This document shows, in pieces, positions 1,471-25,320 of a stretch of DNA of 25,320 bases; position 1 is the stretch's first letter; every line of letters starts with the position of its first letter. Source of the stretch: Cyanobacteriota bacterium (GTDB lineage: Bacteria > Cyanobacteriota > Cyanobacteriia > Thermostichales > Thermostichaceae); NCBI GenBank assembly GCA_033764955.1, contig JANRIL010000003.1:1-25320 (forward strand), given 5' to 3'. Made by a program: the position numbers and the translations under genes. The notes under the pieces were generated by a model. The model ran no database searches and was not told the DNA's origin. It was given only the letters and a program-made list of their open reading frames with translations.

Positions 1471-1574
1471 AGTCTAAGTATCACCTTTCGTCTAAACCTT
1501 GAGTGATTAAGGGATCTATTGGTATTCAACCCTAGGGAGACAAGAGAAAATATCCGCAAAGCTATCCCGAGATG

Positions 1575-1619: not shown

Positions 1620-1680
1620 ATCATCGCCTACCTAATACTGGTCAAGCCGCTAGATCATTCCCTATCTCACGCTAGTCCGA

Positions 1681-5460: not shown

Positions 5461-5721
5461 GTGTTTTATGGGTGCTGCCCTGTTTACATCCCTTGCCTTC
5501 CCCTACTAGGCAGGTAAGGGGATCCCAGATAGTAGCGACATAATATACTGGCCGCCATCACCCCAAGCTTGAAGCTATCGGGATTTTTCTGGGGGTTGCC
5601 CTTTGCACGGAACTGATGAGGTATAGAATAGGAGACATCATATTGATGATTTGTAACAGTGATCTCGCTAGCACTGCTCATTGATATCGGTGCCTAAACT
5701 AACCTTCATTTTTTGAAGCCC

Positions 5722-6477: not shown

Positions 6478-6680
6478 ATACGCTATCCCTCTTCCCCAGA
6501 AATAAGCTTAGATAGAAGCAAGACTTGTGTGTTAGGTCAGCAAATCAGGATTTCCGGATCAACCCAGTGATCCTAATGCGATGAAGGATTATGTTTCTAT
6601 TTTGGGCATGATGCTCCTAAGTGAGCTTCCGTGAAACCACGAATCTCTTTGTTCCACACGTTCTAGCGAAGTCAGGGGAT

Positions 6681-8492: not shown

Positions 8493-8533
8493 ATTGATGA
8501 CGACAGAAATCCTGCACCTGAAATATTTCTACT

Positions 8534-9742
8534 ATGGCTCGTGATTATTACGAATTGTTGGGTGTTAGTCGTGACAGCTCTAAGGAAGACATCAAGAAAG
8601 CTTATCGGCGCTTAGCCCGCAAATACCACCCTGATGTCAACAAAGAGCCGGGGGCGGAGGATCGATTCAAGGAGATCAATCGTGCCTATGAGGTTCTTTC
8701 CGATAACGACCTGAAAAGTCGCTATGACCGTTTTGGCGAGTCTGGATTGGGAGGAGCCGCAGCAGCGGGGGGCTTCCAGGACATGGGTGGTGTGGGATTT
8801 GCCGATATTTTTGAAAGTTTGTTCACCAATTTTGGTGGGGGATCCGGCTCCTACACCCGCAGCCGTACCGGCCCTGTGCGGGGGGATGACCTGCGCTTTG
8901 ATCTGAAGCTGGAGTTTTTGGAAGCTGTTTTTGGGGGTGAAAAACAAATTCGCATCAGCCACCTGGAAACCTGTACCGTCTGTCAAGGCAGTGGTGCCAA
9001 ACCGGGAACGGATATCAAGACCTGTAGCAACTGTGGTGGAGTCGGGCAGGTGCGGCGAGCCACGCGTACTCCTTTCGGCAGCTTCACCCAAGTGTCAGTT
9101 TGTACGAGCTGCAATGGGGTAGGGCAGGTGGTGGAGGAGCGCTGTCATAATTGCAGCGGCGAAGGGCTTGCTCAAAATACCAAAAAGCTTCGTATCACCG
9201 TTCCAGCCGGGGTTGATAGTGGCACCCGTCTGCGGATTTCGGGCGAAGGGGATGCCGGACGGCGCAGTGGCCCTCCCGGCGATCTCTACGTCTATCTGTT
9301 TGTTGAACCGGATCCTGACTTTCAGCGGGATGGACAGGATATCTTGTCGGAAGTAAGAATCAGCTATTTGCAGGCGATTTTGGGAGCCAAGGTGATGGTT
9401 CCTACCCTTGACTCGCGGGCAGAATTGGAGGAGGAAACCGAGTTAACGATTCCGGCGGGCGCACAGCCGGGGGCTATCCTCACACTGGAGGGCAAGGGAG
9501 TACCGAAGATTGGCAACTCGGTGGCGCGGGGGGATCACCGCATTACGCTGGTCATAGACATTCCTACCCGCATCAGTGGGGAGGAGCGGGAGCTGTTGGA
9601 GCGGCTGGCGGAGATTCATGGTCAAAAAACTGGACGGGGAGGTCGGGACGGCTTCCTGGGCAATTTGTTAAGAGGATTGGCTCAACCCAACCGTGAACGG
9701 GGTGAGAACCGCCCCCAGGATCCCCACGAGGATAAGGGCTGA
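8534..9742 (+). CDS. dnaJ: Chaperone DnaJ, type I
   Basis: HPD J-domain, G/F region and four CxxCxGxG repeats. Confidence 0.96.
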
Positions 9743-12240: not shown

Positions 12241-13281
12241 TCAACTGTTGTCAGCCAAGATAGCGGCGTTTAACTTCTCCACTTGTTGTTCCAGTTGCCT
12301 GACTTTTTTGAGTAGATCGGGCAGGTTGCGCTCGATAGCAACCAGGCGTCGCCATTGGGCTGCCGATTGATGGGGATAGCCAGAAACCGTTTCTCCCGCT
12401 GCCACAGAGCTAGTGATGCCCGTTTGTCCCGTGGCGATCACCCGATCCCCGATCGTGATGTGACCGACAATGCCCACTTGTCCTGCCAGGATGACATGGT
12501 TACCCAACTGGGTACCCCCGGCAATCCCTACCTGCGAGACAATCACACAATGGGATCCCATTTTGACCCCATGCCCAATCTGCACTAAGTTATCAATCTT
12601 TGTCCCTCGGCCAATGCGGGTTTCTCCCACGGCAGGGCGGTCGATGGTGGTGTTGCTCCCCACATCCACATCGTCTTCTAGCACCACATGTCCCGACTGC
12701 ATCATGCGATACCAGCGTCCGTCCGCTTGGGGCACATGACCAAACCCATCATCCCCGATCACCGCTCCACTGTGGATGAGGCAGCGATGGCCAATGATCG
12801 TCCGTTCATGGATCACACAATTGGCAAACAACTGACAGCCTTCCCCAATCTGCACCTGCGGATAAATCGTGACATTGGCGTGGATGTGCGTATGGCTGCC
12901 GATCACCACCCCCGCCCCCAACACCACATGGCTGCCAATGGAAACCTGCTCTCCCAGTTGCACATCAGGGGCGATGACTGCCGTCGGGTGAATGCCCAGG
13001 GGGGGCTGATAGGGCTGATAAAACAGTTCGATAGCTTGGGCAAAGGCCAGTCGTGGATCCCTTGCCCGCAAACAAGCTATTGGAGGGGGAGCCACCGTTT
13101 TTTCATCCAAAACGAGAGCGCTGGCTTGGGTTTGTTCCAGCAAGGGCAGATATTTGGGATCGCTAACAAAGCTCAATTGCCCCGGCTGAGCCTCCCCCAG
13201 CGCGGCTACCCCCGTAATCTCTAGGGTGGGATCCCCTTCCAGCGCAAGATGGAGGCGTTGGGCAATAGTCTGAAGCTGCAT
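12241..13281 (-). CDS. lpxD: UDP-3-O-acyl-glucosamine N-acyltransferase
   Basis: Hexapeptide repeats, GDDGFG, TIDR and KIDNLVQIGHGV. Confidence 0.95.
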   Translation of the reverse strand: MQLQTIAQRLHLALEGDPTLEITGVAALGEAQPGQLSFVSDPKYLPLLEQTQASALVLDEKTVAPPPIACLRARDPRLAFAQAIELFYQPYQPPLGIHPTAVIAPDVQLGEQVSIGSHVVLGAGVVIGSHTHIHANVTIYPQVQIGEGCQLFANCVIHERTIIGHRCLIHSGAVIGDDGFGHVPQADGRWYRMMQSGHVVLEDDVDVGSNTTIDRPAVGETRIGRGTKIDNLVQIGHGVKMGSHCVIVSQVGIAGGTQLGNHVILAGQVGIVGHITIGDRVIATGQTGITSSVAAGETVSGYPHQSAAQWRRLVAIERNLPDLLKKVRQLEQQVEKLNAAILADNS

Positions 13282-13358
13282 AGGTTGGAAGGGGGAAAGA
13301 CGGGTTCAGCCAATTAAGATATTAAGATACTGGGTAGAGATGGGGGTAGTTTTCGGGG

Positions 13359-13898
13359 ATGAGTGGGATCCCGACGATTCGCATAGCCAATCTGGAGGAT
13401 GCTGAGCTACTAACTGGGCTGGCACGGCAAACCTTTCAAGAGACGTTTGGGGCACAAACTCACCCCCAGGATTTGGCGCTCTACCTCCAGCAGTCCTTTC
13501 ATCCTCGCCAACAACAGCAGGAATTAGCGGATCCCCTCACCATTACTCTATTGGTGGAGGTGGCGGAGCAGACTGTGGGCTATGCCCAGTTACGAGTGGC
13601 AGATACCCCTGCTTGCATTCAGGGCAACCATCCGCTGGAAATTGGCCGAATTTATCTGTTACAAGCCTGGGTCGGACGTGGCCTTGGCAACCTTTTGATG
13701 AAAACCTGCCTGGAGGCCGCCCAGATGAGCGGATTTCAGACGGTTTGGCTGGGGGTTTGGGAACATAACTATCTGGCACAAGCATTTTATGAAAAATGGG
13801 GGTTTTGCAAGGTCGGAGAACATATTTTCCCGGTAGGAAACGACCCTCAAGTGGATTGGCTGATGCAACGGTCTTTAGAGCCTGTCATCCATTCATAG
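13359..13898 (+). CDS. GNAT N-acetyltransferase (PaiA-like)
   Basis: RIYL..GRGLG acetyl-CoA motif and VWLGVWEHN..AQAFYEKWGF. Confidence 0.88.
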   Translation: MSGIPTIRIANLEDAELLTGLARQTFQETFGAQTHPQDLALYLQQSFHPRQQQQELADPLTITLLVEVAEQTVGYAQLRVADTPACIQGNHPLEIGRIYLLQAWVGRGLGNLLMKTCLEAAQMSGFQTVWLGVWEHNYLAQAFYEKWGFCKVGEHIFPVGNDPQVDWLMQRSLEPVIHS

Positions 13899-14013
13899 CT
13901 AGTAACACTGCGGATCCAACTGCTCTACTTTCCTTCTTTGCCTAGGAGGGATGGGTTCATCCACAGGGGATAGCATCCTGAGCTGACGTTCAATAACCGT
14001 GGAGACTATCCTT

Positions 14014-14275
14014 GCTGTCTAACCGGCTTTTTGGGAATCTCAGGCGGCGATGCCATGGAGATTACCTCTAGAAAATGGCTGAGCTTTGCCGTCTAAAACA
14101 CTGAATCGGGGTGTTATGGCATAGATCTCGCGGCTAGTATACTTTAGATGGGTATTAAACTGCGCTTGGCTGTCTAATACTTCGTTGGGTATCTTAGACC
14201 CCAAGGATAGCCCACCTCATTGGCAAAATTGCCGAGGTTTGCCGTCTCATAGGCTAAATCGGATGATTAGACTGA
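14014..14275. repeat. Array of four degenerate ~35-bp palindromic units, period 72-81 bp
   Basis: GCYGTCTMA-N16/17-(TTAGAC-like) units start at 14014, 14088, 14169 and 14241. Units 1+2 and 3+4 align as a diverged ~154-bp tandem duplication. Confidence 0.55.
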
Positions 14276-14368
14276 ATTATTCTTGAGTACAACGCCCCCA
14301 CATCTGGTATTGGAGCACGTTTGTCAATCTAAACTGACCTAAACAGAAGAATTAGGCTGCAACTTGCA

Positions 14369-14387
14369 GTTTAATAACTGGTTAGCT
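14369..14387 (+). other. attI-like recombination site, left boundary of the cassette array
   Basis: GTTTAAT-AACTG-GTTAGCT: degenerate inverse core, 5-bp spacer and GTT core. GTTAGCTGGC (14381-14390) is the exact reverse complement of GCCAGCTAAC (16501-16510) at the first attC. Confidence 0.6.
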
Positions 14388-14444
14388 GGCTTTGATTCTG
14401 GGTTGTGACAGTTCTGTCATATCCTTCACTGCATAGGTTCAATG

Positions 14445-15242
14445 CTATTCCTCCGTTTCACTAGCTTGATTAAGGAAAAAGCTAGTCACTATCTGGTTTA
14501 GCAGATCATGAGGATCTGAGTTAGTGCTGGCTGCAATTTGCCTAAGTCTGGAAATGTTATCTGAAGATAGACGGAGTGGAGCAAACCGTTCAGGAAAAGC
14601 CCAACTACATATCTCGCACTCTAATTGACATCCACGACACGATGTACTTTTGAAATTATTGCACTCATCACAAAGGGGTTGCCAATTGCTTAGTTCGTTA
14701 CCTCCGCCTCTAGTGCGCGGGATCTTGTGGTCTTGCTGAAAACGAACTTCTGGCTCAGATCGGTTACATACCGGACATCTATGTTGATAAGTGTCTAGGA
14801 TTCTTAGCCAGTCTAGATCAGAAAGTTTAATTCGTGGCACTCTCTTTTCACTCAAGGATAAGCTCACAAGCTGGTATGTTTTACCTTCTCTACCGATTCC
14901 GGTAATGCCTTCCTCGCCTTGTAATTCTCGCAACCGCCGAAAAACGTCTATATAAGGTTTATAGGGTTGGGTGCCTAAATGCTGATTTCTTCTGAAGCGG
15001 TTAATCGCTTCTCTCAGTTCTTCCTCTTCAACACGCGGACCTGGAATACCATGCCCCGCAGGCCACAGTTCTTCTAAAAGCACTCGATAGTAGGACTTAT
15101 TCGCCTCACTGGGACATACAAATTTTTGACAAACTTCCTCAATCCAGACTTCTCGGTTGATGTTTCCTGGCACTTCCTGCTCACTTACAGGTGCAAGAGG
15201 TAAAAACTTTTGTCGCCCACGGCTTTTCCGCTCGGTTGCCAT
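14445..15242 (-). CDS. HNH endonuclease, putative restriction enzyme
   Basis: CPVC...DHKIP..RGG.N..SNWQPLCDECNNFK HNH motif followed by CRGC..CEIC; divergent from a C5 methyltransferase. Confidence 0.8.
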   Translation of the reverse strand: MATERKSRGRQKFLPLAPVSEQEVPGNINREVWIEEVCQKFVCPSEANKSYYRVLLEELWPAGHGIPGPRVEEEELREAINRFRRNQHLGTQPYKPYIDVFRRLRELQGEEGITGIGREGKTYQLVSLSLSEKRVPRIKLSDLDWLRILDTYQHRCPVCNRSEPEVRFQQDHKIPRTRGGGNELSNWQPLCDECNNFKSTSCRGCQLECEICSWAFPERFAPLRLSSDNISRLRQIAASTNSDPHDLLNQIVTSFFLNQASETEE

Positions 15243-15475
15243 TAGTTATCTCCCCGTAGTAGCCAGATGGGGTCGATATCCAACACCTTGGAGATGGCAT
15301 CAAGTTCATAATCTTTCAGAGATCTGACTTGACGCTCAATCTCTGAGATGTCGGACTGTTCTAGCTTGATTCCATAATCAACATTGAGAGCGGCGGCTAA
15401 TTCAACCTGGTCTAAATTATTTTTCAGCCTTACCTGACGAATTCTTGCTCCACTGATATTTTGCTTGTCTCCCAT
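15242..15475 (-). CDS. XRE-family HTH regulator (controller/C-protein-like)
   Basis: IGARIRQVR-type start and QSDISEIER helix. GAGG RBS before ATG 15475. The stop overlaps the HNH start (TAATG). Confidence 0.82.
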   Translation of the reverse strand: MGDKQNISGARIRQVRLKNNLDQVELAAALNVDYGIKLEQSDISEIERQVRSLKDYELDAISKVLDIDPIWLLRGDN

Positions 15476-15526
15476 AGCTAACACCTCAACCTCATAGTGA
15501 GATGTTATTTAAGAGAGAATTGATTC

Positions 15527-15545
15527 GTAGACGATTTCCGTCTAC
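15527..15545. promoter_or_regulatory. Candidate operator in the divergent controller/MTase promoter region
   Basis: Perfect inverted repeat GTAGACG-ATTTC-CGTCTAC. Confidence 0.4.
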
Positions 15546-15611
15546 AGTAGCTTTTAGGAACTAAATCATTTATGATTAGCCCCATTATCAGACCCTGTAT
15601 CTAGTTTTGAT

Positions 15612-16520
15612 ATGCGTGTCTCCTCCTTCTTCGCTGGCATTGGCGGCTTTGATCTTGGCTTTGAAAGAGCAGGGATGAATGTCGTATTTCAATGTGAAAT
15701 AGATCCTTTTTGCCAACAAATCCTTAAGCGCCACTGGCCACATATCCCCTTACATGAAGACATCACAACCCTCGACCCAACAACTATCCCTCCCTCTGAC
15801 TTGTGGTGTGCCGGATGGCCTTGCCAAGACCTCAGCACTGCCAACACAGATCGCCCAGGACTTGCTGGAAAGCGAAGTGGTCTATTCTTCGCGTTTATGG
15901 ACTTGGTTAGAGAAGTTCATCCAGCGTGGTTGGTCATGGAAAATGTGCCGGGGCTACTCTCCGCAGAGCAAGGAACCGCTCTTGAAACAGTTATCGACAC
16001 GCTCGAAGAGAATGGGTATTTGGGGGGATGGGTATCGTGTAACGCTGTCCATTCGGGCTTACCCCATAATCGAGACAGAGTGTTCTTTGTCGCAAGTTTT
16101 AGATCGGAACGTGCCTATCACTTCTTTACTGACAGTCGCGAATTGTCTGGGGATACTACGTCGAGAGAATCGAGCAAAACGCAAACTAGATCCAATTTTC
16201 GTCAAGGCACTCTCGGAGACAATCCGCTTGTGGTACAACGTCGCGGCGGCTTCGGGTACACCATGGCAAAAAGCATCTGCCCCACGTTACGTGCCCAAAC
16301 TGGAGGACATCAAGGAGGTCATTCAGACAGACCAATACTCTGTGGCGAGAAACTTGACGTGGACAGAGTGGGAGAGGCTTATGGGGTTTCCTCCCGGATG
16401 GACGGTCGTCGAGGGAGACTCCTTGGCAATGCTGTCGTCCCCGCAATTAGCGAATGGATCGGAAGACGAATCTTAGAAATTGAAATGATGTCAGATGCCA
16501 GCCAGCTAACAAGTCGATGA
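15612..16520 (+). CDS. DNA (cytosine-5) methyltransferase, alpha polypeptide (lacks motif IX)
   Basis: Motifs I FAGIGG, IV GWPCQD, VI ENVPG, VIII PHNRDRVF and X LGNAVVP are present; no R.LT..E..RL.GFP in this frame. The stop codon lies inside attC1. Confidence 0.92.
   Translation: MRVSSFFAGIGGFDLGFERAGMNVVFQCEIDPFCQQILKRHWPHIPLHEDITTLDPTTIPPSDLWCAGWPCQDLSTANTDRPGLAGKRSGLFFAFMDLVREVHPAWLVMENVPGLLSAEQGTALETVIDTLEENGYLGGWVSCNAVHSGLPHNRDRVFFVASFRSERAYHFFTDSRELSGDTTSRESSKTQTRSNFRQGTLGDNPLVVQRRGGFGYTMAKSICPTLRAQTGGHQGGHSDRPILCGEKLDVDRVGEAYGVSSRMDGRRGRLLGNAVVPAISEWIGRRILEIEMMSDASQLTSR
15754..16476 (+). CDS. DNA (cytosine-5) methyltransferase beta polypeptide, overprinted in the +1 frame
   Basis: 240-codon open frame inside the alpha gene containing RNLTWTEWERLMGFPPGWT (motif IX) and ECSLSQVLD, which resembles M.EcoHK31I beta as I recall it. 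True start uncertain. Confidence 0.8.
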   Translation: MKTSQPSTQQLSLPLTCGVPDGLAKTSALPTQIAQDLLESEVVYSSRLWTWLEKFIQRGWSWKMCRGYSPQSKEPLLKQLSTRSKRMGIWGDGYRVTLSIRAYPIIETECSLSQVLDRNVPITSLLTVANCLGILRRENRAKRKLDPIFVKALSETIRLWYNVAAASGTPWQKASAPRYVPKLEDIKEVIQTDQYSVARNLTWTEWERLMGFPPGWTVVEGDSLAMLSSPQLANGSEDES

Positions 16521-16589
16521 AGCGGACGGTCGATAGATCTCGGTGAAAAGGCAAAGGTTATCTGCCGCCGCTTATCTTGGTCGTTAGAC
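16504..16589 (+). other. attC site 1 (86 bp)
   Basis: R'' AGCTAAC, then GATGAAGCGGACGG pairing with CCGCCGCTTATC with two extrahelical bases, then R' GTTAGAC. Confidence 0.9.
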
Positions 16590-16753
16590 CTCAATCCCTG
16601 GGCGGGGTAGTAGCTTGGGGGCGATCGGGTATTGTTGTAGTGAAGTCACATTTTCTGTTCCATCGCTCATTGCACTCCAAACTTTACAAAAAACCGACCT
16701 TTTGGTCGGAAGAGAGTGGAGAGGATTTCTGGGATTTAATTAGCTTGAAGCCT

Positions 16754-16999
16754 TTAACCAAGCAATCTGATCTGAACAATTAGAACTCCGACAATACCTG
16801 ATGCAGCGATCGCGAATAAGAGGTTAGTGAAGCGCCGACCTGCTTTGGGGTTCAACCCCAAGATCTTATCTTCCTGTCCCGCAGTGAATAGTAAAGACCA
16901 AGATTGAGTAGCGTTGATAAGCTCGAAGGTGTTGAAAGCAGGTCTGAAAATAACGGAACCGAACAAGCTGGGATTTCTGAAGTCAAAGTCAGTGATCAT
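16754..16999 (-). CDS. Small hypothetical membrane protein
   Basis: 81 aa with a C-terminal hydrophobic helix; AGGA RBS; directly downstream of the Psb34-like gene. Confidence 0.6.
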   Translation of the reverse strand: MITDFDFRNPSLFGSVIFRPAFNTFELINATQSWSLLFTAGQEDKILGLNPKAGRRFTNLLFAIAASGIVGVLIVQIRLLG

Positions 17000-17046
17000 T
17001 GTGATTCCTTGGATAGGGCTGATCGTGAGATTGTAAGAGAGATGCC

Positions 17047-17403
17047 CTAGCTAACAGAAAAAGCAATCAATCCAGTCAGGGTGACTAGCAGGGCAGCAAT
17101 CGCCCCTTGAAAAACGTAGCGGCGTTGTGCTTCAGGCGTAGGATATCCGGCAAAATACATCGCAGGCTCAATGGAGTAGGCATTGACGAGTCCCTCATCG
17201 TCTACGGTATAGCCAGCCATCTGAGGTGCATCCGGCAATTGACCACCATTACGGTGTATCTTGGCTTGCACCTCTGCGGGAATTAGCTCACTGCCATCAC
17301 TATAGTGACGTACCTCAGTCTCCGAGATTTTCTCTAGAGCAGCGATCTCAGCGATGCGCTCCTGGAGGGTAAGAGCAGTTTTTTCTTTGTTGATGGTGTA
17401 CAT
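17047..17403 (-). CDS. Psb34/Ssl1498-family PSII assembly protein, N-terminally extended
   Basis: C-terminal YTVDDEGLVNAYSIEPAMYFAGYPTPEAQRRY plus one TM helix ending AFSVS matches the family pattern. ATG 17403 follows an AGGA RBS. Confidence 0.75.
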   Translation of the reverse strand: MYTINKEKTALTLQERIAEIAALEKISETEVRHYSDGSELIPAEVQAKIHRNGGQLPDAPQMAGYTVDDEGLVNAYSIEPAMYFAGYPTPEAQRRYVFQGAIAALLVTLTGLIAFSVS

Positions 17404-17624
17404 TCTGTGTTTCCTGTTTCTCTTGGACATCCTTAATGTAACATGTTTTTGCAAAATATTGTTTTTCTGCTTGTTAACTGAGATAATGAAAAGTTTTAAT
17501 AAATTTAGTTTTTGTGTTACACTCTCTCAGAAAGTCATTCCAGACTGCTAAAATCCATTAGGCAACGGCACAATCTCGCTTGACTTTAAGACAGACGGCT
17601 CTTACCTGAGAAGGGGGCTAGCAT

Positions 17625-18089
17625 GTGCAGGAATATACGATCGAGCGTTCCGTGGAGGTAGACATCACTTGTTCGGTAGAGGAGGTTTACAATCTCTGGG
17701 AGAATTTGGAGAATGTGCCGCGTTGGATCCCCCTTGTAAAGGAAGTCAAGGTTTTACCTGGTTCTGAACAGCTATCGCGCTGGAAGTTTGGGCTGGGGGC
17801 ACCTCTACTGACCGAGTGGACTTCGCGCATTACCCAACGCATTCCCATGCAGTTAATTGCTTGGGAGTCAGTCTCTGGTTTGCCAAACCATGGCTGTGCC
17901 CAGTTCTTCCCAACTGATCGAGGGTGTCGTTTACGCCTTAAGCTTGCCTTCAATCTACCAGGGGGAATTGTGGGTACACTGATTAAAGGTATTGGAGTAG
18001 AACGCTGGTTAGAAGCCAATCTGGTAGAGAGCTTGAAACGGTTTCAAACTCTGATCGAAGAAGAGGTGCTTCGCAAAGCAGTCAGATAA
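17625..18089 (+). CDS. SRPBCC/START-family (polyketide cyclase-like) protein
   Basis: VEEVYNLWENLENVPRW, WTSRIT..IAWESVSGLPNHG and a C-terminal LKRFQTLIE helix. Confidence 0.85.
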   Translation: MQEYTIERSVEVDITCSVEEVYNLWENLENVPRWIPLVKEVKVLPGSEQLSRWKFGLGAPLLTEWTSRITQRIPMQLIAWESVSGLPNHGCAQFFPTDRGCRLRLKLAFNLPGGIVGTLIKGIGVERWLEANLVESLKRFQTLIEEEVLRKAVR

Positions 18090-18167
18090 ATAGGTTGACA
18101 GGATGTGGAAAACTACTGCCTATCTGTCCATAGAATCATTATCACTTCTGCACCTGTAGCGTGAACG

Positions 18168-18255
18168 GTCTAACAACCGCGCTGCACCGGAACGCTCCAA
18201 TACAGTCGGTTGGGTGGCAAAGTTTATCTGCGTCCGGTGAGCACGACCGTTAGCT
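18168..18255 (+). other. attC site 2 (88 bp)
   Basis: R'' GTCTAAC, GCTGCACCGGAACGC pairing with GCGTCCGGTGAGC, then R' GTTAGCT. Confidence 0.92.
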
Positions 18256-18357
18256 GGCTTCGTTTGATCGGTTGGGGTGTTCTCAAGAGGCGATTTGTCA
18301 TGGCAAGAGTTAATATCTGCAGAGCAAGTTATTTGTGATGACCGAGAGGCTGAGTTT

Positions 18358-19401
18358 ATGTCACAGACCTACACCCCTACCTCAATTTCTCCTGAACTAG
18401 TGCATCGCCTTCGCGCCATGCCAAAAGCAGAGATTCACGTTCATATTGAGGGAGCAACAGACGCAGAGACGTTTTACCAAATGGCGCAGCGAAACCAAGT
18501 GGAGTTACCAGCAGACTCACTGGAGGAGTGGAAATCATTTTTTGAATTTCGCGATTTTCCCCATTTCATTCAGGTTTATGCAGCAGCGGTTCAGTGCTTA
18601 CAAACGCTAGAAGACTATGCACTGATGATTGAACGGTTCTACAAGCGTCAAGCTGAGGAAAACATTCTCTATACGGAAGCCTTCTTGAGTGCATCATTTC
18701 TGACTCAAAAGTTTGAGGATCAAGAAATTTTGAATGCGATCGCGGTGGGGTGTGCGACGGGAGAAGCCAAATATAGCTGTCAAGTGAATTTGATTCCTGA
18801 TATTGCGCGTGAAATTCCTGACTCTCAACATCGCGTTCTAGAATTTGTCATGAAAGGGAAAGAACGCGGATTATTTATTGGTTTAGGAGTTGGAGGACTT
18901 GAAATTGGATATCCACCAGAATTGTTCACAGAGACTTATGTAGAAGCTCACCGACAGGGGCTTAAAGTTGTTGCTCATGCGGGTGAAGCTGTTGGAGCAG
19001 AGAGTATTTGGGGTGCGGTAAATACCTTGAAAGCCGAACGCATTGGACATGGCATTCGATGTTTAGATGATCCAAATTTGGTTGAGATGCTCCGTCAGCA
19101 TCGGATTCCGTTGGAAGTGTCACCTCAAAGCAACTACTGTTTAGGGGTTGTGGCACAAGAGCAACCTCACCCAATCCGCAGAATGGTCGATACTGGGCTT
19201 TATTGCACCGTCAACTCGGATGATCCAGCCATGTTTTCAACGAGTTTGACCAATGAGTATTTGACACTTGCGAAACAAGGATTTAGCTGGGAAGAATTGT
19301 GGCAACTCAACCTGAATACCTTAGAAGCGACGTTTTTAGGTGAAGCGGAAAAGGGTAAATATCGTGTGGAGTGGGAGAAATTCATACGAACAGCCAGCTA
19401 A
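18358..19401 (+). CDS. add: Adenosine/adenine deaminase
   Basis: PKAEIHVHIEG, HAGE, RIGHG and NSDDP motifs. ATG 18358 follows GAGAGG. The TAA stop lies within R'' of attC3. Confidence 0.88.
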   Translation: MSQTYTPTSISPELVHRLRAMPKAEIHVHIEGATDAETFYQMAQRNQVELPADSLEEWKSFFEFRDFPHFIQVYAAAVQCLQTLEDYALMIERFYKRQAEENILYTEAFLSASFLTQKFEDQEILNAIAVGCATGEAKYSCQVNLIPDIAREIPDSQHRVLEFVMKGKERGLFIGLGVGGLEIGYPPELFTETYVEAHRQGLKVVAHAGEAVGAESIWGAVNTLKAERIGHGIRCLDDPNLVEMLRQHRIPLEVSPQSNYCLGVVAQEQPHPIRRMVDTGLYCTVNSDDPAMFSTSLTNEYLTLAKQGFSWEELWQLNLNTLEATFLGEAEKGKYRVEWEKFIRTAS

Positions 19402-19482
19402 CAATTTGGTTGGAGCGGATGTAAGATGCCTTTCCGTCTATCGTTCGAGTCTGTTCGTCACCGCTCAACCGGAACGTTATAC
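19396..19482 (+). other. attC site 3 (87 bp)
   Basis: R'' AGCTAAC, GGTTGGAGCGG pairing with CCGCTCAACC (one extrahelical G), then R' GTTATAC. Confidence 0.88.
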
Positions 19483-19600
19483 GGCACCGCACGAGCATCT
19501 GATTTTTAACCACAGCGAGATTATATTTCCTTCGGAAAGCCCCTAATAATCTTGCAGATGATATCGTTTCAATATCAGTTAAAACTCATAAATAGGGAAA

Positions 19601-22600
19601 ATGAAATTGATTAAAACTGATTGGGGTATATTTAAAGCAAAGTTCTCAGCAAATCCACAAAATGCTTTTGAGTGGATGTGTTATCTCCTTTTCTGCAATG
19701 AATTCAGCGTGAAAACTGGCATTTTTCGCTATAAAAACCAATCGGCTATGGAAACCAATCCAATTTCCTCAAATGGAGTTAATGTTGGTTGGCAAGCTAA
19801 ATTTTATGACGCCGCATTATCTAGCCATAAAAATGACATACTAGAAACGATTACAAAAGCAAAACGTGATTACCCTGATTTAAATAAAATAATTTTTTAC
19901 ACAAATTCAGAGTGGGGCCAAAACAAAGGAAAGGAACCACAAGGAAAAATAGAAGCAGAAAAAATAGCAAAAACAAACAACCTAGGAATTGAATGGAGAT
20001 GTTGTAGTTTTTTCGAATCACCGTTTGTTGTTGATGAATGTAGCCGGATCACTTCGTACTTCTTTACTCAATCTGATAATTTATTTGGACTTTTGGAGTC
20101 GTTCGAGTCTCATACAGGTGCAATTCTGGACGATATTGAAACTGCTATAACTTTTGGCGACCAAGATGTTTCAATCAATCGCTCTAATATTATATCTGAA
20201 ATTGAAAAGTCAGATGCTAGCGCGTTAATTATAAGTGGCAAAGGCGGCACGGGAAAAACAGCCTTGATAAAAGAGCTGTATGGAGACAAAGGAAAAAATG
20301 ATGCTTTTTATGTCCACAAAGCGACAGAATTTTCTGTTAGTAGCTTGAATGTATTTTTGTCAGGTGTTTTTCTAAAAGATTTTATTGGAGCACATGAAGG
20401 AGCTGACAATAAAACAGTTGTTATTGACTCTGCTGAACACTTGCTTGCTTTGGAAAATACTGATCCTATTAAAGAGTATCTATCCAATTTAATCAAAGCT
20501 GGATGGAGGGTGTGGTTCACCACGAGAAATACCTACCTAAATGATTTAATTTTTCAGCTATATGAAGTATACAAAATTAGCTTTAAGTCGGTGCATCTAG
20601 AAAACCTGAATGAATATACATTATTCGAACTTGCCAAAAAGCATAATTTTGTCATCCCTGTTGACAAAAGGCTCAAAGCGCTCATATTGACTCCATTTTA
20701 TCTTAGGGAGTATTTGAAGCATTACCAAGACAACAAGGGCGCAAGCTACTTTGAATTCAAAGATTTTTTATGGCCAAGAGTCATTGCGAAACGATCCCCG
20801 CAACGAGAACAATTTTTCATACATCTTGCTAAAGAAAGAGCTAATTCAGGAAGGTTTTTCGTTAATCCAGATCATAGCTACTCAAATGAAGCGGTAGAAA
20901 AATCGTTGGTTTCCGATGGAATAATTAGCTATGAGTCTACTCGCGGTTATTTTATTACTCATGATATATATGAAGAATGGGCACTTGATAAATTCGTTGA
21001 GAGTAATTATTTATCCTCAGAAAATGCTGAAATATTTTTTGATAGAATACAACAGTCTTTGCCCATAAGAAGGGTTTTCAGGCGGTGGCTATCAGAGAAA
21101 CTTAGTGCGGCCAATGAAGAAGTTAGCCATCTTATTGTAGAAACCTTGTCGTCTCACAAAGTATCTAATTTGTGGAAGGATGAAGTGCTAGTTTCCATGC
21201 TTCTATCCGACTATTCCGATTATTTTTTTGCCGTTAATAAAAATTTACTATTGGAAGACGATTTCAGACTTCTAAAACGGATATGCTTGTTGATACGAAT
21301 AGGATGCAAAGAGATAGATAATAGTATTTTTGATAGACTTGGAGTGAGAACGCCAGATATTTTATCAATGGAATATATAATAACCAAGCCGAAAGGAAAC
21401 GGGTGGAAATCGCTTATCAAGTTCATCAATGACAATCTCGAAAAGATAGGTGTTAATAATCTCAGTTTTGTATTGCCCGCCCTCTACGACTGGAACAGCC
21501 ACAACAAGTCTGGCGACGCAACTAAATATTCCAGCCTAATTGCATTATCGTTTTACAAATCGGTAATCGAAAACAACGTCTATATTAGGGATGATGGTTT
21601 TTCCAAGGAGTTAATCCTTACCATTTTGTATGGGGCAGGTGAAATTAAAAGTGAACTTGAAGCTATCATTGATGAAATTATTCTAAAAAATTGGAAGCGA
21701 CATAACGATCCATATCATCTAATGAGTGAATTCATTTTAACAAAAATGGAATACTTTAATGTTGCTATTGAAATTCCGAAAAAAGTGATTGCTCTAGCTA
21801 AATGCCTTTGGGTGTATGAACCACCAAAAAACGACAATTATTTTTATGGATCAAGACTAGAGATAGATCATGAATTTGGTGTTGAGAATGGACATCAAGA
21901 CTATTATCCCGCCAGTGCTTATCAAACACCCATATACGCCCTGCTGAAAGCCAATTTAGAATTAACATTAAACTTCATTACCGACCTAATTAATTATGCT
22001 TCAAAAAAATATGCAGAATCCAGCCTTGATAAGGGCCTGGTTGAAACGGCAACACTATTACTAGATGATGGGAAGAAAATTGATCTGCCTATTTCAAACC
22101 GTCTTTGGTGCATGTACCGAGGAACACAGGTAAACCCTGATTTACTTGAATCAATATTAATGTCTCTAGAACGCTTCTTTCTTGAGAGAGGAAAAAATAC
22201 CAAATCTGAAACACTTGAATTTTATCTAAATTATATTCTAACAAGATCTGAATCTTCTGCGCTCGTGGATGTTGTTGCAAGCATAGTATGTGCTTTTCAC
22301 GAGAAAACATTTAATGTAGCCAAAACTCTATTCAGGACAAAAGAATTTTTCTTCTATGACACATCTAGAATGATGTTGGATCAAACACATAAAACTCAAC
22401 TTACTTCGCTCAAAAATTTTAGCATCAACCGGATGAATGAGCTTCATGAGAATGAAAGGATAAGTGCCTGCGATCAAAAACATCGAAAAAAATCACTAGA
22501 AAATATAGCGCTTCAGTATCAGTTTTTCAGGGCAGAAGAAGTGAGCGAAGAAGAATCTGAGAAAAGGCTTCGAGAAATTTGGGATATTTGGGATATTCAC

Positions 22601-24322
22601 TACAAAAACTTACCGGGGAAAGAACTAGAAAATCATCGCGATAAAACTTGGCGTCTATATTTAGCCCGTATGGACAAAAGGAAAATGTCGCTTGAAACCA
22701 AAGAAGTTGAAGATGGCATAACAATTGAATTCAATCCGGAAATTGATCCAGAGCTTAGGGAATATAGTGAAAAGTCTCAGCGAGAAGCGAGCAAGCATTT
22801 TGCACATTCCGGTTTAAAGATTTGGGCCGATAGTAGGCTCTATAATAGAGATGAGTACAAAAAATATGCGTCTTATGAAAATGATCCATTGACTGCTTTG
22901 AGTGAGGCACAAGAAATATGGAATCAACTTTCAGAAGGCAACGTGACGGAGGAATTACAGTTTGATCGAGCTACACCATCGTATGTGTGCGCCGTGCTAT
23001 TGCGAGACTTTAAAGGAAAGTTAGGTAAAACCGAGCTGGAATTTTGCAAGGAAGTCATATTTGAATACGCAAATATTGTTAACAATAATGATTACATGCA
23101 CCAGATCGGCGATGGCTTTGTTCCTGCGTTATTTGTACTCCCAAGATTGATAGATGATTTTCCGGAAGAAAGACTAACTATCAAGTTGCTATTAATCAAA
23201 GCGCTATTGAGGCATGACCCAATAACGATGATGGGAGTGGACAGGATAAATTCAGTAGCCATTCAAGCTGTTCTGCACTTATGGAAGAATAAACCAGATT
23301 TCATGAAGTCGCTGTACATTGGGTATTTGGTAATTGCTCAAAAACATAGAGACGTTCAGGACCGTTTAAGACAAGAGGCATATAAACAGCACAAATATGA
23401 AATTGATAACAATGACTTTGAGCGGGAGTTATTGAAAGAATTAGAGAGTGTAGCAAAGAGTATCGAAGATGAAACCATCACGGAATCCGTAATAGACAAC
23501 ATTGAAAGCATAGATAACGACATATTGATAACTGCTTTTCAGCTTGCACCATTGGATGGCGAACACAATAAAACAGTGCCGTTTGTCGAGGATATTATTA
23601 GAATAATTTCACAGCAATTGCTTTCACCAGACAGAGAAGACCGGCTTAATTATACTCTCAGATATGAATTTTTAAAGCACTATGCCCGTTTTATCCTGCA
23701 TATAGGGAATAGCGAGAAGGACAAATACCTTAAATATTTTACCGATAATTTCACCTTGAGTGAAGGCATGGCAGATTTGTTAAATGAATTTGTTAGCGCT
23801 GAAGACTCATTGAATATACCAGACTCATTTTGGTATGTTTGGAATCGATTTAAAGACCATATCGTTGATTCAATAAATAGCCAAGGTTGGAGGCATGATA
23901 AAGAACGTATAATCGAATCCTTTTTATTTGGAAGAGTCCCTTGGAAGGATGAAGCAATGACATGGCATACATTTTCACCGGAGAATAAAGCATTTTTTGA
24001 TGACCTAAGTGGCAGGATCGGTGGTGAGCCTTCTTTTATTTATAGCATTAGTAAACTCCTTTGTGGCATTGGAAGTGAATTTTTAGATGATGGTATTTAC
24101 TGGATCAGTAACGCAATTAATACTTTTTATATTGATATATCAAAGCATAAATCAGGTAATACTATATTTTATTTGGAGAGATATATGAGAAGGTATTTAT
24201 TCAAAAATCATGACAAAGTTAAACGAACACCAAATTTACGGGCAAAGTCAATGGTGGTTCTGGATTTCCTGGTTGAGCAATATTCAATTACTGGTTATCT
24301 CCTAAGAGAAGATTTAGCCTAG
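19601..24322 (+). CDS. avs4: AVAST type 4 antiviral STAND NTPase/nuclease Avs4
   Basis: N-terminus W..FKAKFS.NPQ..FEW.CYLLFC.EF...GIFRYKNQS..ETNPI...GWQAKFY matches the Avs4 Mrr-like nuclease domain as recalled. Walker A GKGGTGKT, Walker B VVIDSAE, long helical C-terminus, 1573 aa, AT-rich. Confidence 0.88.
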   Translation: MKLIKTDWGIFKAKFSANPQNAFEWMCYLLFCNEFSVKTGIFRYKNQSAMETNPISSNGVNVGWQAKFYDAALSSHKNDILETITKAKRDYPDLNKIIFYTNSEWGQNKGKEPQGKIEAEKIAKTNNLGIEWRCCSFFESPFVVDECSRITSYFFTQSDNLFGLLESFESHTGAILDDIETAITFGDQDVSINRSNIISEIEKSDASALIISGKGGTGKTALIKELYGDKGKNDAFYVHKATEFSVSSLNVFLSGVFLKDFIGAHEGADNKTVVIDSAEHLLALENTDPIKEYLSNLIKAGWRVWFTTRNTYLNDLIFQLYEVYKISFKSVHLENLNEYTLFELAKKHNFVIPVDKRLKALILTPFYLREYLKHYQDNKGASYFEFKDFLWPRVIAKRSPQREQFFIHLAKERANSGRFFVNPDHSYSNEAVEKSLVSDGIISYESTRGYFITHDIYEEWALDKFVESNYLSSENAEIFFDRIQQSLPIRRVFRRWLSEKLSAANEEVSHLIVETLSSHKVSNLWKDEVLVSMLLSDYSDYFFAVNKNLLLEDDFRLLKRICLLIRIGCKEIDNSIFDRLGVRTPDILSMEYIITKPKGNGWKSLIKFINDNLEKIGVNNLSFVLPALYDWNSHNKSGDATKYSSLIALSFYKSVIENNVYIRDDGFSKELILTILYGAGEIKSELEAIIDEIILKNWKRHNDPYHLMSEFILTKMEYFNVAIEIPKKVIALAKCLWVYEPPKNDNYFYGSRLEIDHEFGVENGHQDYYPASAYQTPIYALLKANLELTLNFITDLINYASKKYAESSLDKGLVETATLLLDDGKKIDLPISNRLWCMYRGTQVNPDLLESILMSLERFFLERGKNTKSETLEFYLNYILTRSESSALVDVVASIVCAFHEKTFNVAKTLFRTKEFFFYDTSRMMLDQTHKTQLTSLKNFSINRMNELHENERISACDQKHRKKSLENIALQYQFFRAEEVSEEESEKRLREIWDIWDIHYKNLPGKELENHRDKTWRLYLARMDKRKMSLETKEVEDGITIEFNPEIDPELREYSEKSQREASKHFAHSGLKIWADSRLYNRDEYKKYASYENDPLTALSEAQEIWNQLSEGNVTEELQFDRATPSYVCAVLLRDFKGKLGKTELEFCKEVIFEYANIVNNNDYMHQIGDGFVPALFVLPRLIDDFPEERLTIKLLLIKALLRHDPITMMGVDRINSVAIQAVLHLWKNKPDFMKSLYIGYLVIAQKHRDVQDRLRQEAYKQHKYEIDNNDFERELLKELESVAKSIEDETITESVIDNIESIDNDILITAFQLAPLDGEHNKTVPFVEDIIRIISQQLLSPDREDRLNYTLRYEFLKHYARFILHIGNSEKDKYLKYFTDNFTLSEGMADLLNEFVSAEDSLNIPDSFWYVWNRFKDHIVDSINSQGWRHDKERIIESFLFGRVPWKDEAMTWHTFSPENKAFFDDLSGRIGGEPSFIYSISKLLCGIGSEFLDDGIYWISNAINTFYIDISKHKSGNTIFYLERYMRRYLFKNHDKVKRTPNLRAKSMVVLDFLVEQYSITGYLLREDLA

Positions 24323-24448
24323 CTAAAAAACTTTGTGGCCGAGGTTTACCGAATAACCAAAGGCCTAAATCAAATACGAAGAATATATTATTTGTAGTTT
24401 GTGTCGCTCCTATCCATATGCTGATAAATGGCGACATATTTATGTGCC

Positions 24449-24520
24449 GTATAACAAGTTGCTGCACACGGATAAATTACTCGCTGTGCTCCTAATTTAC
24501 CGATGAGCAAAGCGTTAGTC
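24449..24520 (+). other. attC site 4 (72 bp)
   Basis: R'' GTATAAC, TTGCTGCACACGGATAAATTA pairing with TAATTTACCGATGAGCAA, then R' GTTAGTC. Confidence 0.92.
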
Positions 24521-24600
24521 CGCTTGAATTGTCAGTGATGACTTAGAATGGTATGACTCGTAAGCTATAGGATTTAGAGAGTCATAAGCTGAGAAGAAAT

Positions 24601-25242
24601 ATGCATCCACAGGATACAGCCACTCGATACAATCACATTGCCCAATGGTGGCAAACTCAGCATCAAGGCTCGCTTTATGGTATCGCACAGTTAGAGCAGG
24701 CCATCAAATTTACTACTAAAAAACAATCAGCTATTGATATAGGGTGCGGAAGCAGCGGACGTTTTATTAAAGTCTTAAGCGAACATGGATTTCAAGCGGA
24801 AGGACTTGATATTTCCGAGGAAATGATTGATTTAGCTAAACAACTGCATCCAGGCGTCACCTTTTACTGGTCAGACATCTGCTGCTGGAACCCTTCCAAA
24901 TCCTACAACTTGATTGTTGCTTGGGATAGCACGTTTCACCTGCCGCTAGATATGCAAGAACCTGTCACGAAAAAGCTATGCAATGCTCTTGAACCTGATG
25001 GGGTGCTTATGTTTACCTGTGGAGGTGGATACAGACAAGATGAGGTATCTGGAACATTTCAAGGTCAAGACTTTGAGTACAGCACGTTGGGCGTAAATGC
25101 TTTCTTAAAGATTCTAATTGAGCAACATTGTACTTGTCTTCACGTCGAATACGATCAATATCCTGAGAACCATGTTTACATACAGCCTATTCGACGATTA
25201 GCTAGTACAGTAACAGCACTTGGTAAACCAGTTTCTGAATGA
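24601..25242 (+). CDS. Class I SAM-dependent methyltransferase; 3' end replaced by IS sequence
   Basis: IDIGCGSSG, GLDIS and AWDSTFHLP motifs. Native sequence appears to end at HVYI (25182); the last 19 residues are read from the IS end. Confidence 0.85.
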   Translation: MHPQDTATRYNHIAQWWQTQHQGSLYGIAQLEQAIKFTTKKQSAIDIGCGSSGRFIKVLSEHGFQAEGLDISEEMIDLAKQLHPGVTFYWSDICCWNPSKSYNLIVAWDSTFHLPLDMQEPVTKKLCNALEPDGVLMFTCGGGYRQDEVSGTFQGQDFEYSTLGVNAFLKILIEQHCTCLHVEYDQYPENHVYIQPIRRLASTVTALGKPVSE

Positions 25243-25320
25243 TGCCTTCTCTACCAAATATAGTGCGATCTCTATCAGCTTTTCTATGCTTTCCATCCCC
25301 CTAGAAGGAAACAGTCGGAC
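25181..25320 (-). mobile_element. IS630-family element end with transposase C-terminus (partial)
   Basis: Minus strand 25320-25198 reads VRLFPSRGMESIEKLIEIALYLVEKASFRNWFTKCCYCTS*, matching the NWFTxCCYCTS ending of cyanobacterial IS630 transposases. The boundary is at a TA (25181-25182). Confidence 0.78.

Follow-up and report, generated by a model that had tools for sequence, protein, structure and literature searches.

How does a gene for a full-size immune receptor, Avs4, come to lie between two attC sites in a cyanobacterial chromosome? A first-pass annotation of the window analyzed here (the whole 25,320-nucleotide stretch) had read the locus as an exceptionally large anti-phage integron cassette imported from another phylum. 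Our answer, to which we give a probability of roughly 0.9, is that avs4 is the single gene of a 5038-bp attC-bounded cassette in a CALIN, that this cassette was acquired horizontally by integrase recombination at G|TT and circulates among Gammaproteobacteria, Desulfobacterota and Cyanobacteria, and that, by homology, it would confer portal-triggered killing of the EcAvs4 kind.

The Avs4 gene and its cassette

The gene occupies positions 19601..24322 (+ strand) and encodes 1573 residues, with an N-terminal nuclease region, a Walker A motif and a long C-terminal sensor. The protein matches the NCBIfam Avs4 equivalog NF041815.1 with 2064.1 bits (cut-off 1500), residues 7-1572 aligning to positions 1-1578 of 1579, and the PADLOC Avs4 model PDLC02169 with 2180.8 bits, residues 3-1572 aligning to 1-1569 of 1570. 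The claim of a complete Avs4 therefore holds from end to end. A Pfam search of the protein reported no domain. The match to the solved EcAvs4 structure (AVAST type 4; 8DGF chain A) is collinear, with 1347 bits over residues 3-1572 against 1-1586, and the three-part build of the characterized member is present in the same order: nuclease effector, STAND ATPase and C-terminal sensor. The two proteins are equal in length and share both the Walker A motif (GKGGTGKT at 213-220 in the window protein) and Q65-x-K67 of the nuclease region, which we take to be the catalytic motif of the EcAvs4 nuclease. They differ in that the window protein belongs to a different subclade, with about half of its residues identical (an estimate from the bit score and a partial alignment), lacks a 19-residue insertion that 8DGF has near residue 115, and is encoded by an integron cassette of a cyanobacterium. 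Comparison with six full-length copies gave dN/dS values of 0.12-0.26: the reading frame is intact and under purifying selection.

Phage portals have been reported to activate Avs4, leading to tetramers and activation of the N-terminal nuclease, according to the account in PMC11897194. By homology with EcAvs4, the C-terminal repeats of the window protein would bind the portal protein of tailed phages, the STAND ATPase would then drive tetramer assembly, and the tetramer would switch on the nuclease, killing the infected cell. We infer portal sensing, defence in the cyanobacterial host, expression of the gene and present-day mobility of the cassette.

The cassette spans 19477..24514 (+ strand; GC 0.363) and is bordered on both sides by G|TT, at the R' box of the preceding site (G 19476, TT from 19477) and at its own R' box (between 24514 and 24515). 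Its first 12 bases pair with the bases that end the R'' box of its own attC: positions 19476-19487 are the reverse complement of 24444-24455, and the 12-bp end complementarity that had been claimed is exact. Two neighbouring cassettes show the same end complementarity, over 11 and 8 bp. The 1573-residue frame is, as first described, the sole sizeable gene between the two flanking sites, the remaining frames of at least 60 residues being five antisense ones of 65-73. Upstream of it lies a leader (19477..19600, + strand) of 124 bp, close to the earlier figure of about 120, which travels with the cassette and is purine-rich just 5' of the ATG; a simple scan of this leader for a sigma-70-like promoter found none. 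Downstream, a trailer of 126 bp (24323..24448, + strand) runs from the stop codon to the attC and falls within the homology block of four related loci (L020, L021, L023 and L031). Promoter and terminator scans gave no sites in the leader and chance-level ones only in the trailer.

To identify attC sites we used a covariance model, R1, built from 16 sites that all lie on other contigs of the host genome, seven of them adjoining its two intact intI genes. These training sites were picked by eye among 31 matches of a scanner for TAAC...GTTA arms. As stand-alone evidence the scanner was rejected: its 31 genome matches compare with 10-18 in each of 10 shuffles, and this lack of specificity is why it served for candidate collection only. 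Pairing in the R1 structure reaches 89.6%, compared with 77.0% in shuffles, and double-change cells number 41, compared with 14.7. On the window, R1 found exactly four sites, all on the + strand and all scoring far above the - strand, with nothing else below E 0.4; the third and fourth, numbered attC3 and attC4 from the outset, flank the Avs4 cassette. An extra G on the left arm is visible by eye in all four. An Rfam scan of the whole window returned one sub-threshold chance match and no attC family, and a tRNA scan of the window returned nothing.

The left-hand site, attC3 (19396..19482, + strand; 54.8 bits, E 6.1e-11; - strand 17.4 bits), is of the host's own type and supplies, through its R' box, the left border of the Avs4 cassette. 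The cassette's own site, attC4 (24449..24520, + strand, 72 nt; 22.1 bits, E 0.0035; - strand 7.8 bits), lies at its 3' end and points the same way as the gene; its R and L boxes pair, with an unpaired spacer and extra-helical bases. For the circular form, folding the bottom strand of attC4 gave one imperfect hairpin of -20.6 kcal/mol, compared with -7.1 +/- 2.5 for 200 shuffles, none of which was as low. Folded in their genomic context, the four attC sites lie only weakly below shuffles and are not clearly more stable than these (z -0.65 to -2.2), and their predicted structures depart from the canonical hairpin, as is to be expected of sites whose genomic R' box is hybrid; the covariance model and the circular-form fold were used in place of this test.

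The array and the host genome

The Avs4 cassette is the fourth of at least five attC-bounded slots in a cyanobacterial chromosome. The first recognizable slot (14383..16583, + strand, 2201 bp) carries a restriction-modification unit with Pfam and PADLOC matches: an HNH restriction endonuclease (14445-15242, - strand), an HTH control protein (15242-15484, - strand) and a C5 cytosine methyltransferase (15612-16520, + strand). It is closed by an attC at 16504..16589 (+ strand; 65.1 bits, E 2.1e-13; - strand 17.3 bits), and at its left end positions 14382-14392 match, as reverse complement over 11 bp, the bases that precede its R'' box (a reading by eye that involves a one-base offset). The second slot (16584-18249) ends in an attC at 18168..18255 (+ strand; 65.0 bits, E 2.2e-13; - strand 21.3 bits). 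It is followed by an adenosine deaminase cassette (18250..19476, + strand; ORF 18277-19401; TIGR01430 263 bits, cut-off 216.6) with 11-bp end complementarity, in which the stop codon falls within the R'' box of the cassette's own site, attC3. Beyond the Avs4 cassette, the start of the next slot (24515..25179, + strand) holds a SAM-dependent methyltransferase gene (24601-25242; Pfam Methyltransf_23/25/11). Past this gene the contig enters a dispersed repeat, before the attC of the slot is reached.

The host genome, a bin in 48 contigs, is 89% complete and has a GC content of 51.5%. The array stands without a neighbouring intI, attI or Pc promoter: left of the first slot the attC model recognized no attC and no attI was seen, a tblastn search of 13250-14500 with both host IntI proteins for an integrase remnant gave a best E of 3.3, and the ORF adjoining the array encodes LpxD, followed by a GNAT acetyltransferase. 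Because no integrase is adjacent, the array is a CALIN. Elsewhere the genome carries several intI fragments and two intact intI genes, which score 463 and 451 bits (cut-off 265); these two integrases could act on the array in trans. As a separate observation, positions 13880-14181 are similar both to DNA that lies next to integrase fragments on contigs C4 and C30 and to part of contig C7; the similarity could not be resolved into a defined site and was set aside as one.

The arrangement of the array lends itself to another interpretation, which we regard as unlikely but as the strongest of the rivals: that an integrase inserted the cassette once, and that it is now frozen, perhaps a silent passenger in a decayed array, neither excised nor expressed. 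The bare left end of the array, the intI fragments (a sign of integron decay), the leader without a promoter-like site and the end of the contig in a dispersed repeat just beyond the next gene would all fit such a history, as would the less frequent recovery of large cassettes described in bioRxiv 10.64898/2026.03.17.712381. Against it, the genome retains two intact intI genes, both bounding attC sites are intact with their exact 12-bp complementarity, and the reading frame is intact and selected; limits on cassette length are, moreover, not stringent according to PMC5371416.

It is also conceivable, at a much lower level of probability, that assembly or binning joined a cassette from a co-occurring proteobacterium to cyanobacterial DNA through repeated attC sites. 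The fragmented bin and the occurrence of near-identical cassettes in many unrelated samples speak for such a join, as does the composition of the cassette: its GC content of 0.363 lies well below that of the three upstream cassettes (0.457-0.471), the housekeeping part of the contig (0.534) and the genome (0.515), from which it differs by 15 points. But the array shares its contig with cyanobacterial housekeeping genes, among them a chorismate synthase 82-83% identical to Thermostichus and Synechococcus proteins, the left attC is of the host family (54.8 bits), and the right flank enters a repeat of 140 bp that recurs, at 99-100% identity, where six further contigs of this genome end. With host-type DNA on both flanks, the artefact needs a false join on both sides. 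In the genome as a whole, PsaA and PsaB are present and PF00124 (photosystem II reaction centre) was not found, an absence that we attribute to the 89% completeness and not to host biology.

We return, then, to a genuine cassette in a cyanobacterial chromosome, and to its source. The AT-richness relative to the flanks that had been noted from the start marks the cassette as foreign, and its GC content is 0.36-0.37 in every host. Among the host's attC sites, attC4 is an outlier, with 22 bits against 55-65 bits for host-type sites. A search of 40 related cyanobacteria found the gene in 0 of them, while integron integrases above cut-off occur in 20 of 41 genomes (the host and these 40 relatives). 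In the Avs4 tree the nearest relatives are gammaproteobacterial: the window protein groups with Marinicella (support 0.996), and a Geitlerinema protein groups with one from an uncultured Zhongshania (support 1.0, 96.7% identity). Of the proposed import from another phylum, composition, attC, distribution and kinship thus uphold the import itself, not a particular donor or direction.

The same cassette in other bacteria

Is the cassette peculiar to this genome? We compared 14 related loci, with a 5' flank present in 13 and a 3' flank in 10. The unit is 85-95% identical at the DNA level in Gammaproteobacteria, a Desulfobacterium MAG and Geitlerinema. The left border recurs among the homologues as the start of homology (19475/19476) in 7 of the 13 loci, the right border as its end (24517/24518) in 3 of the 10. 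In seven other loci the leader is conserved from cassette base 1 with dissimilar DNA upstream of the border, and this upstream sequence varies from locus to locus, consisting of different attC or attI-like sites. The same unit thus stands behind different recombination sites in different arrays and hosts, which, together with the R1 sites and the G|TT borders, bears out its status as a cassette. The right-hand site, attC4, is conserved in Vreelandella, Geitlerinema and one metagenome contig. In public sequencing runs the same borders appear: contigs in three of four runs span 19475 to 24516-24518 and then diverge, and run X2 yielded gene fragments only. The cassette is therefore a widely circulating unit, not unique to this genome.

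Individual loci differ in their surroundings. The Desulfobacterium copy lies directly after a repeat region that resembles attI and is accompanied by decayed pieces of intI, and an IS4-family transposase follows the copy; the intact integrase of Marinicella sits on a contig other than the Avs4 contig; and the Geitlerinema copy is on a 4.9-kb contig whose attribution to Geitlerinema is that of the record. In 6 of the 13 loci, homology extends to the gene alone or to part of the leader. Copies in E. coli, found in 8 of 5426 genomes and on two or three plasmids, are without the attC and the first 21 bases, and one has an IS5 inside it. In two plasmid copies covering at least 80% of the cassette the attC is absent, and one plasmid region that we inspected has no integron features annotated. 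These partial loci and attC-less copies indicate that the gene also exists outside cassettes, and the cassette and the attC-less copies that share most of its leader would provide a natural case for the study of cassette birth or decay.

The E. coli chromosome and plasmid copies outside any attC context, and the insertion sequences at some copies, might be taken to mean that a transposon, phage satellite or homologous recombination moved the gene and that its attC-like flanks are incidental, but we consider this highly improbable, as the G|TT crossover is exactly where homology ends, at the rates given above, the attC or attI-like sites that serve as upstream partners differ, and neither a transposase nor an inverted terminal repeat or target duplication lies at the cassette borders in the window.

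That unrelated bacteria share this 5-kb unit, borders included, indicates that integrons can move full-size immune receptors between phyla. We extend this reading, with confidence only somewhat above even, to the clade as a whole: this Avs4 clade would be a self-contained 5-kb cassette spread worldwide in at least three phyla, having reached the two cyanobacterial records by separate transfers, and carrying an attC of the estX family that places it within reach of mobile integrons.

Cassette size and the link to mobile integrons

How unusual is a cassette of this size? The largest known cassettes measure about 2 kb in the account of Cury et al. (2016, PMC4889954), a figure behind the 4-kb rule of IntegronFinder, and the median cassette CDS given in PMC5371416 is 575 bp in mobile and 362 bp in chromosomal integrons. 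At 5038 bp, the Avs4 cassette is 2.5 times the largest size cited in PMC4889954. The defence systems of integrons are, as Darracq et al. describe them (bioRxiv 2024.07.02.601686), small and streamlined, so the epithet "exceptionally large" holds against these published accounts. According to the same preprint, 73% of the integron defence systems surveyed are in Vibrio; in bioRxiv 10.64898/2026.03.17.712381, large size is tied to poor recombination, and recovery failed for a cassette whose attC sites stood 4 kb apart. Our own literature search combining Avs4 or AVAST with integron or attC returned nothing relevant; preprint supplementary tables may name Avs cases.

The locus resembles the anti-phage cassettes of mobile integrons (BRiCs) and of Vibrio chromosomal integrons in that a defence gene lies between attC sites and occurs in several hosts, and the array holds other defence-type cargo, namely the restriction-modification unit and a methyltransferase that PADLOC matches weakly as "mad2". 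The locus differs from them in its CDS of 4.7 kb, its cassette length of 5.0 kb and its cyanobacterial host. Similarly, it agrees with the CALIN as presented by Cury et al. (2016, PMC4889954) in having four same-strand attC sites and no integrase on the contig, but the gap between the third and fourth sites, 4966 nt, exceeds the 4-kb clustering rule set out there; default IntegronFinder settings are therefore expected to split the array at the Avs4 cassette. Such cassettes have probably been overlooked, because the usual 4-kb clustering splits arrays at them.

Recent work has presented integrons as stores of anti-phage genes, with the genes small and cassettes of about 4 kb regarded as practically unable to move. 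In the case described here, one cassette with exact integron borders carries a pattern-recognition receptor of 1,573 residues, complete, from cyanobacteria to Gammaproteobacteria to Desulfobacterota. If our reading is true, integrons carry full-length NLR-like immune receptors, beyond "streamlined" defences. Should integrase-mediated movement be confirmed, the upper size limit of natural cassettes would rise, surveys that apply the 4-kb rule would be seen to undercount large defence cassettes, and a single-gene receptor that requires no host partner would appear well suited to spread by integrons.

The relationship of attC4 to known sites extends these considerations to clinical integrons. None of the copies of the Avs4 cassette that we saw lay within a class 1 integron. 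The attC4 sequence is 86.8% identical over 67-68 nt to plasmid sites located just after estX, so that the estX cassette of class 1 integrons (e.g. plasmid NZ_CP023143.1) has a related attC although its cargo is unrelated to Avs4. On the principle that attC sites are conserved within source taxa, taken from PMC8352920, a paper in which estX itself does not occur, this identity suggests that one kind of source integron gave rise to both cassettes or was traversed by them, which would tie an environmental defence cassette to the clinical integron cassette pool.

The Avs4 gene

The avs4 ORF (19601-24322, + strand; 1,573 residues) is, as the first-pass annotation had stated, the only gene between attC3 (19396-19482) and attC4 (24449-24520): the other ORFs of at least 60 aa within the cassette interval are five antisense frames of 65-73 aa. 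The host genome comprises 3.80 Mb in 48 contigs with a GC content of 51.5%, and the window is the whole of one 25,320-bp contig. GC along the ORF drops to 0.34-0.40, and the entire cassette (0.363) is indeed more AT-rich than both the three upstream cassette slots (0.457-0.471) and the housekeeping portion of the contig (0.534).

The protein is a complete Avs4, as had been proposed. It matches the PADLOC Avs4 model end to end (2180.8 bits) and the NCBIfam Avs4 equivalog with 2064.1 bits (curated cut-off 1500); a Pfam search of the protein reported no domain. The N-terminal nuclease region contains a Q-x-K motif (Q65, K67), which is catalytic in EcAvs4, and residues 213-220 form a Walker A motif. 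EcAvs4 (PDB 8DGF) is the sole solved relative; residues 3-1572 of our protein align to its residues 1-1586 (1347 bits). In comparisons with six full-length copies found in other organisms, dN/dS lies at 0.12-0.26, indicating that the gene is intact and has been under purifying selection in the past. Relative to the Marinicella copy, dS is very uneven: 0.02 in the ATPase part (codons 171-560) and 0.13-0.24 elsewhere, reaching 0.24 in the N-terminal part. This mosaic pattern of synonymous divergence suggests recombination between alleles of the Avs4 cassette.

According to the available text of PMC11897194, members of the Avs4 family are activated by phage portals and form tetramers, which activates the N-terminal nuclease. 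If the present protein works like its family, its C-terminal sensor would bind a phage portal protein, the ATPase would then drive tetramer formation, and the N-terminal nuclease would then be activated. By this analogy, a system of one protein that reads a conserved phage protein would be expected to function wherever the host has tailed phages, in keeping with the spread of Avs4 across hosts. No Pc promoter adjoins the array, and a promoter scan found no recognisable promoter in the conserved leader. E. coli copies without attC retain most of this leader, a hint that it may carry avs4's own control region.

Cassette borders and attC sites

Placing the crossover at G|TT in the R' box gives the Avs4 cassette a span of 19477-24514 (5,038 bp). 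The reported 12-bp end complementarity is exact, positions 19476-19487 being the reverse complement of 24444-24455. Such complementarity is expected after a circular form, because the cassette's first bases rebuild the R' pairing with its own R''; it amounts to 11 bp in the adenosine deaminase cassette and 8 bp in the preceding slot. In the modelled circular form, the bottom strand of attC4 folds into one imperfect hairpin of -20.6 kcal/mol, compared with -7.1 ± 2.5 kcal/mol for shuffled sequences, none of which (0 of 200) was as low.

By eye, the four attC sites of the window have in common a YTAACAA left box and a CGTTAG/T right box. To avoid circular testing of these sites, we gathered candidates genome-wide with a crude scanner, which gave 31 matches in the host genome and 10-18 in each of ten shuffled genomes. 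Sixteen of the 31, all on other contigs and of one family by appearance, were used to train a covariance model (R1); the four window sites, their near-identical paralogues at C11:16170 and C7:3472, and nine family-unlike candidates were left out. The training set was picked by eye, with the sites adjoining integrases as an independent anchor: 7 of the 16 directly adjoin the host's two intact integron integrase genes (C9:19-960, - strand, 463 bits; C38:63588-64529, + strand, 451 bits; cut-off 265). The R1 alignment backs a hairpin with an R stem, an unpaired spacer and a bulged L stem: pairing is 89.6%, against 77.0% when shuffled and 24-56% with partners slid, and double-change cells number 41 against 14.7.

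Scanned with filters off, R1 recovers four sites on the + strand of the window: 16504-16589 (65.1 bits, E = 2.1e-13), 18168-18255 (65.0 bits, E = 2.2e-13), attC3 (54.8 bits, E = 6.1e-11) and attC4 (22.1 bits, E = 0.0035); the next best match has E = 0.46. The corresponding - strand scores are 17.3, 21.3, 17.4 and 7.8 bits, which fixes the orientation of the sites, and the gene directions agree. The avs4 gene is thus bounded by a + strand attC at either end.

The description of this cassette as exceptionally large holds against the biggest cassettes known, ~2 kb in the available text of Cury et al. 2016 (PMC4889954). There, attC sites <4 kb apart are clustered, a distance stated to be twice that size, and Cyanobacteria are among the phyla with integrons; the attC3-attC4 gap here, at 4,966 nt, exceeds the 4-kb rule. 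In the portion available of Loot and colleagues (PMC5371416), median cassette CDS lengths are 575 and 362 bp and the length limit is judged not stringent; in that of a 2026 preprint (10.64898/2026.03.17.712381), recovery drops with size and failed for a cassette whose attC sites lay 4 kb from each other. The accessible part of Darracq et al. (bioRxiv 2024.07.02.601686) reports 783 cassette-borne defence systems, 73% from Vibrio, with at most two components and shorter than the same types elsewhere; it mentions Avs only in passing, for a shared nuclease domain. Our literature search, with preprint supplementary tables outside its reach, found no paper describing Avs4 as an integron cassette.

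A cassette shared among hosts

In a protein search, Avs4 clusters lie at 75-93% identity, after which identity falls to ~55% and below. The named clusters in this range are Zhongshania, Nitrosomonas, Cronobacter, Wenzhouxiangellaceae, Vibrio vulnificus, Dickeya, Photobacterium, Grimontia, Enterobacter and Geitlerinema. We compared window 18000-25320 by blastn with 14 loci with flanks, 8 from genomes and 6 from metagenomes. Thirteen loci have 5' flank, and in 7 of them homology starts right at the left border, with 19475 or 19476 as its first base: those of Vreelandella sulfidaeris (5,043 nt aligned at 91.6% identity), Marinicella gelatinilytica (4,980 nt at 95.0%), Zhongshania guokunii and a Desulfobacterium MAG, together with three metagenome contigs. 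The remaining six start at 19493, 19571 (two Acinetobacter loci), 19592, 19605 and 19607. Ten loci have 3' flank, and in 3 of them (Vreelandella, Geitlerinema and one metagenome contig) homology stops at the right border, its last base being 24517 or 24518. Marinicella homology stops at 24454, within the R'' box; both Acinetobacter loci retain an attC-like site that is shorter and carries the same R'' extension, and 4 of the 10 have only the gene in common with the window. Some homologues are attC-flanked; others share only the gene or part of the leader.

The DNA beyond the left border varies among loci. Vreelandella has a 62-nt attC (R1 21.3 bits, E = 0.021), Marinicella a long attC and another 420 nt further up (28.5 bits, E = 4e-4), and two metagenome contigs other attC-like sites. 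The Zhongshania guokunii locus has a partial integron integrase (194.8 bits) 5.8 kb upstream. In the Desulfobacterium MAG (L026), the cassette comes after a three-direct-repeat region beside integron integrase pieces (123.6 bits with one stop codon; an N-terminal ORF with 25.4 bits). The three ~16-nt direct repeats, at 3720-3890, lie between the decayed pieces and the cassette's first base, making this region a candidate attI with putative integrase-binding repeats, the layout expected of a first cassette at attI. An IS4-family transposase follows avs4 there.

Contigs from four public runs of four studies were also aligned to the window: in three of the four, contigs span 19475 to 24516-24518 with up to 98% identity and then diverge. 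GC of avs4 is 36-37% in every host examined. These comparisons show that a unit bounded by attC sites and carrying an intact Avs4 has been placed behind recombination sites that differ from host to host; rather than being a one-off, the cassette is widely shared. Several more contigs of these runs (X1, X2, X3 and X5) match only the attC (24449-24518), one at depth 62, so other cassettes with this attC type are present in those communities.

In PLSDB, 631 records match the cassette. Among those listed, avs4 is present on two E. coli plasmids, 85% identical over window 19498-24328 and lacking the attC, and in part on a third; 11 of the 15 listed match only the cassette's last 68 bases, the attC, at 86.8% identity. 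In the one attC-matching record examined, the match directly follows estX in a class 1 integron (intI1, estX, HAD hydrolase gene, aadA2, cmlA), and alignment upheld the likeness of attC4 to the estX attC. Among 5,426 complete E. coli genomes, avs4 occurs in eight, without attC.

The host itself is cyanobacterial: the chorismate synthase encoded on the contig shares 82-83% identity with proteins of Thermostichus and Synechococcus, every named match being cyanobacterial, and the genome has PsaA and PsaB. The photosystem II reaction-centre family PF00124 was not found in this 89%-complete genome, probably because of an assembly gap at the multi-copy psbA/psbD genes. Integron integrases are common in the lineage (above cut-off in 20 of 41 genomes, host included). 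No Avs4 match at E = 1e-10 or better was found in 40 relatives (22 belonging to the host's family, 7 to its order and 11 to its class). A FastTree built from 53 sequences (one locus was left out, its frame giving stop codons) places the window protein together with Marinicella and two unnamed proteins (support 0.996, 92.8% identity). The Geitlerinema protein, from a 4.9-kb contig whose organism of origin is taken from the record only, is placed with that of an uncultured Zhongshania (support 1.0, 96.7% identity), and identity between the two cyanobacterial copies is 87.5%. Taken with the low GC, the outlier attC and the lack of a match in relatives, the tree groupings point to separate imports into the two cyanobacterial records. 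Import as such, which the first-pass annotation had proposed, is thus supported.

The array and its surroundings

Left of the array lie genes for a GNAT acetyltransferase, lpxD, aroC, rsgA and chaperones. A tblastn search of 13250-14500 with both host integrases found no IntI similarity (best E = 3.3). Since no integrase adjoins, the locus is a CALIN, a cluster of attC sites lacking an integrase. The cassette is confirmed and its proposed reading supported, with the corrections that the array is not a complete integron and that the cassette is widely shared. Integrase fragments occur elsewhere in the host genome, on C36, C30, C4, C38, C11 and C28. Direct and inverted repeats before the array (13880-14380) may be the leftover of an integron platform; 13941-14181 is 89% identical to C7:104176-104419, and 13880-14090 is weakly similar to DNA beside the fragments on C4 and C30.

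The terminal 140 bp (25180-25320) match the ends of contigs C33, C26, C25, C6, C30 and C27 at 99-100% identity and an internal stretch of C7 at 80%. They form a dispersed repeat that breaks the assembly, probably an insertion sequence end, so the array is cut off and no attC is seen for the fifth slot.

The first slot (14383-16583) is a 2.2-kb unit with a whole type II restriction-modification system, comprising an HNH endonuclease and HTH control protein (- strand) and a C5 methyltransferase (+ strand). Its left border has 11 bp complementary to its own attC, and no attC or attI was found preceding it. In the second slot, a 135-aa ORF (17047-17454, - strand) has a C-terminal match to Psb34 (79.3 bits, cut-off 45), a cyanobacterial photosystem II assembly protein; its neighbours are an 81-aa ORF without a match and, on the + strand, an SRPBCC/polyketide-cyclase-like gene. 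It is unusual for a cassette slot to contain a photosynthesis gene of host type. Directly before Avs4, a stand-alone adenosine deaminase (18277-19401; TIGR01430, 263 bits) forms its own 1.2-kb cassette, matched by PADLOC only via the deaminase part of a CARF-deaminase model. At the other end of the window (1-9742), a B12-binding radical SAM gene is surrounded by grpE and two copies each of dnaK and dnaJ.
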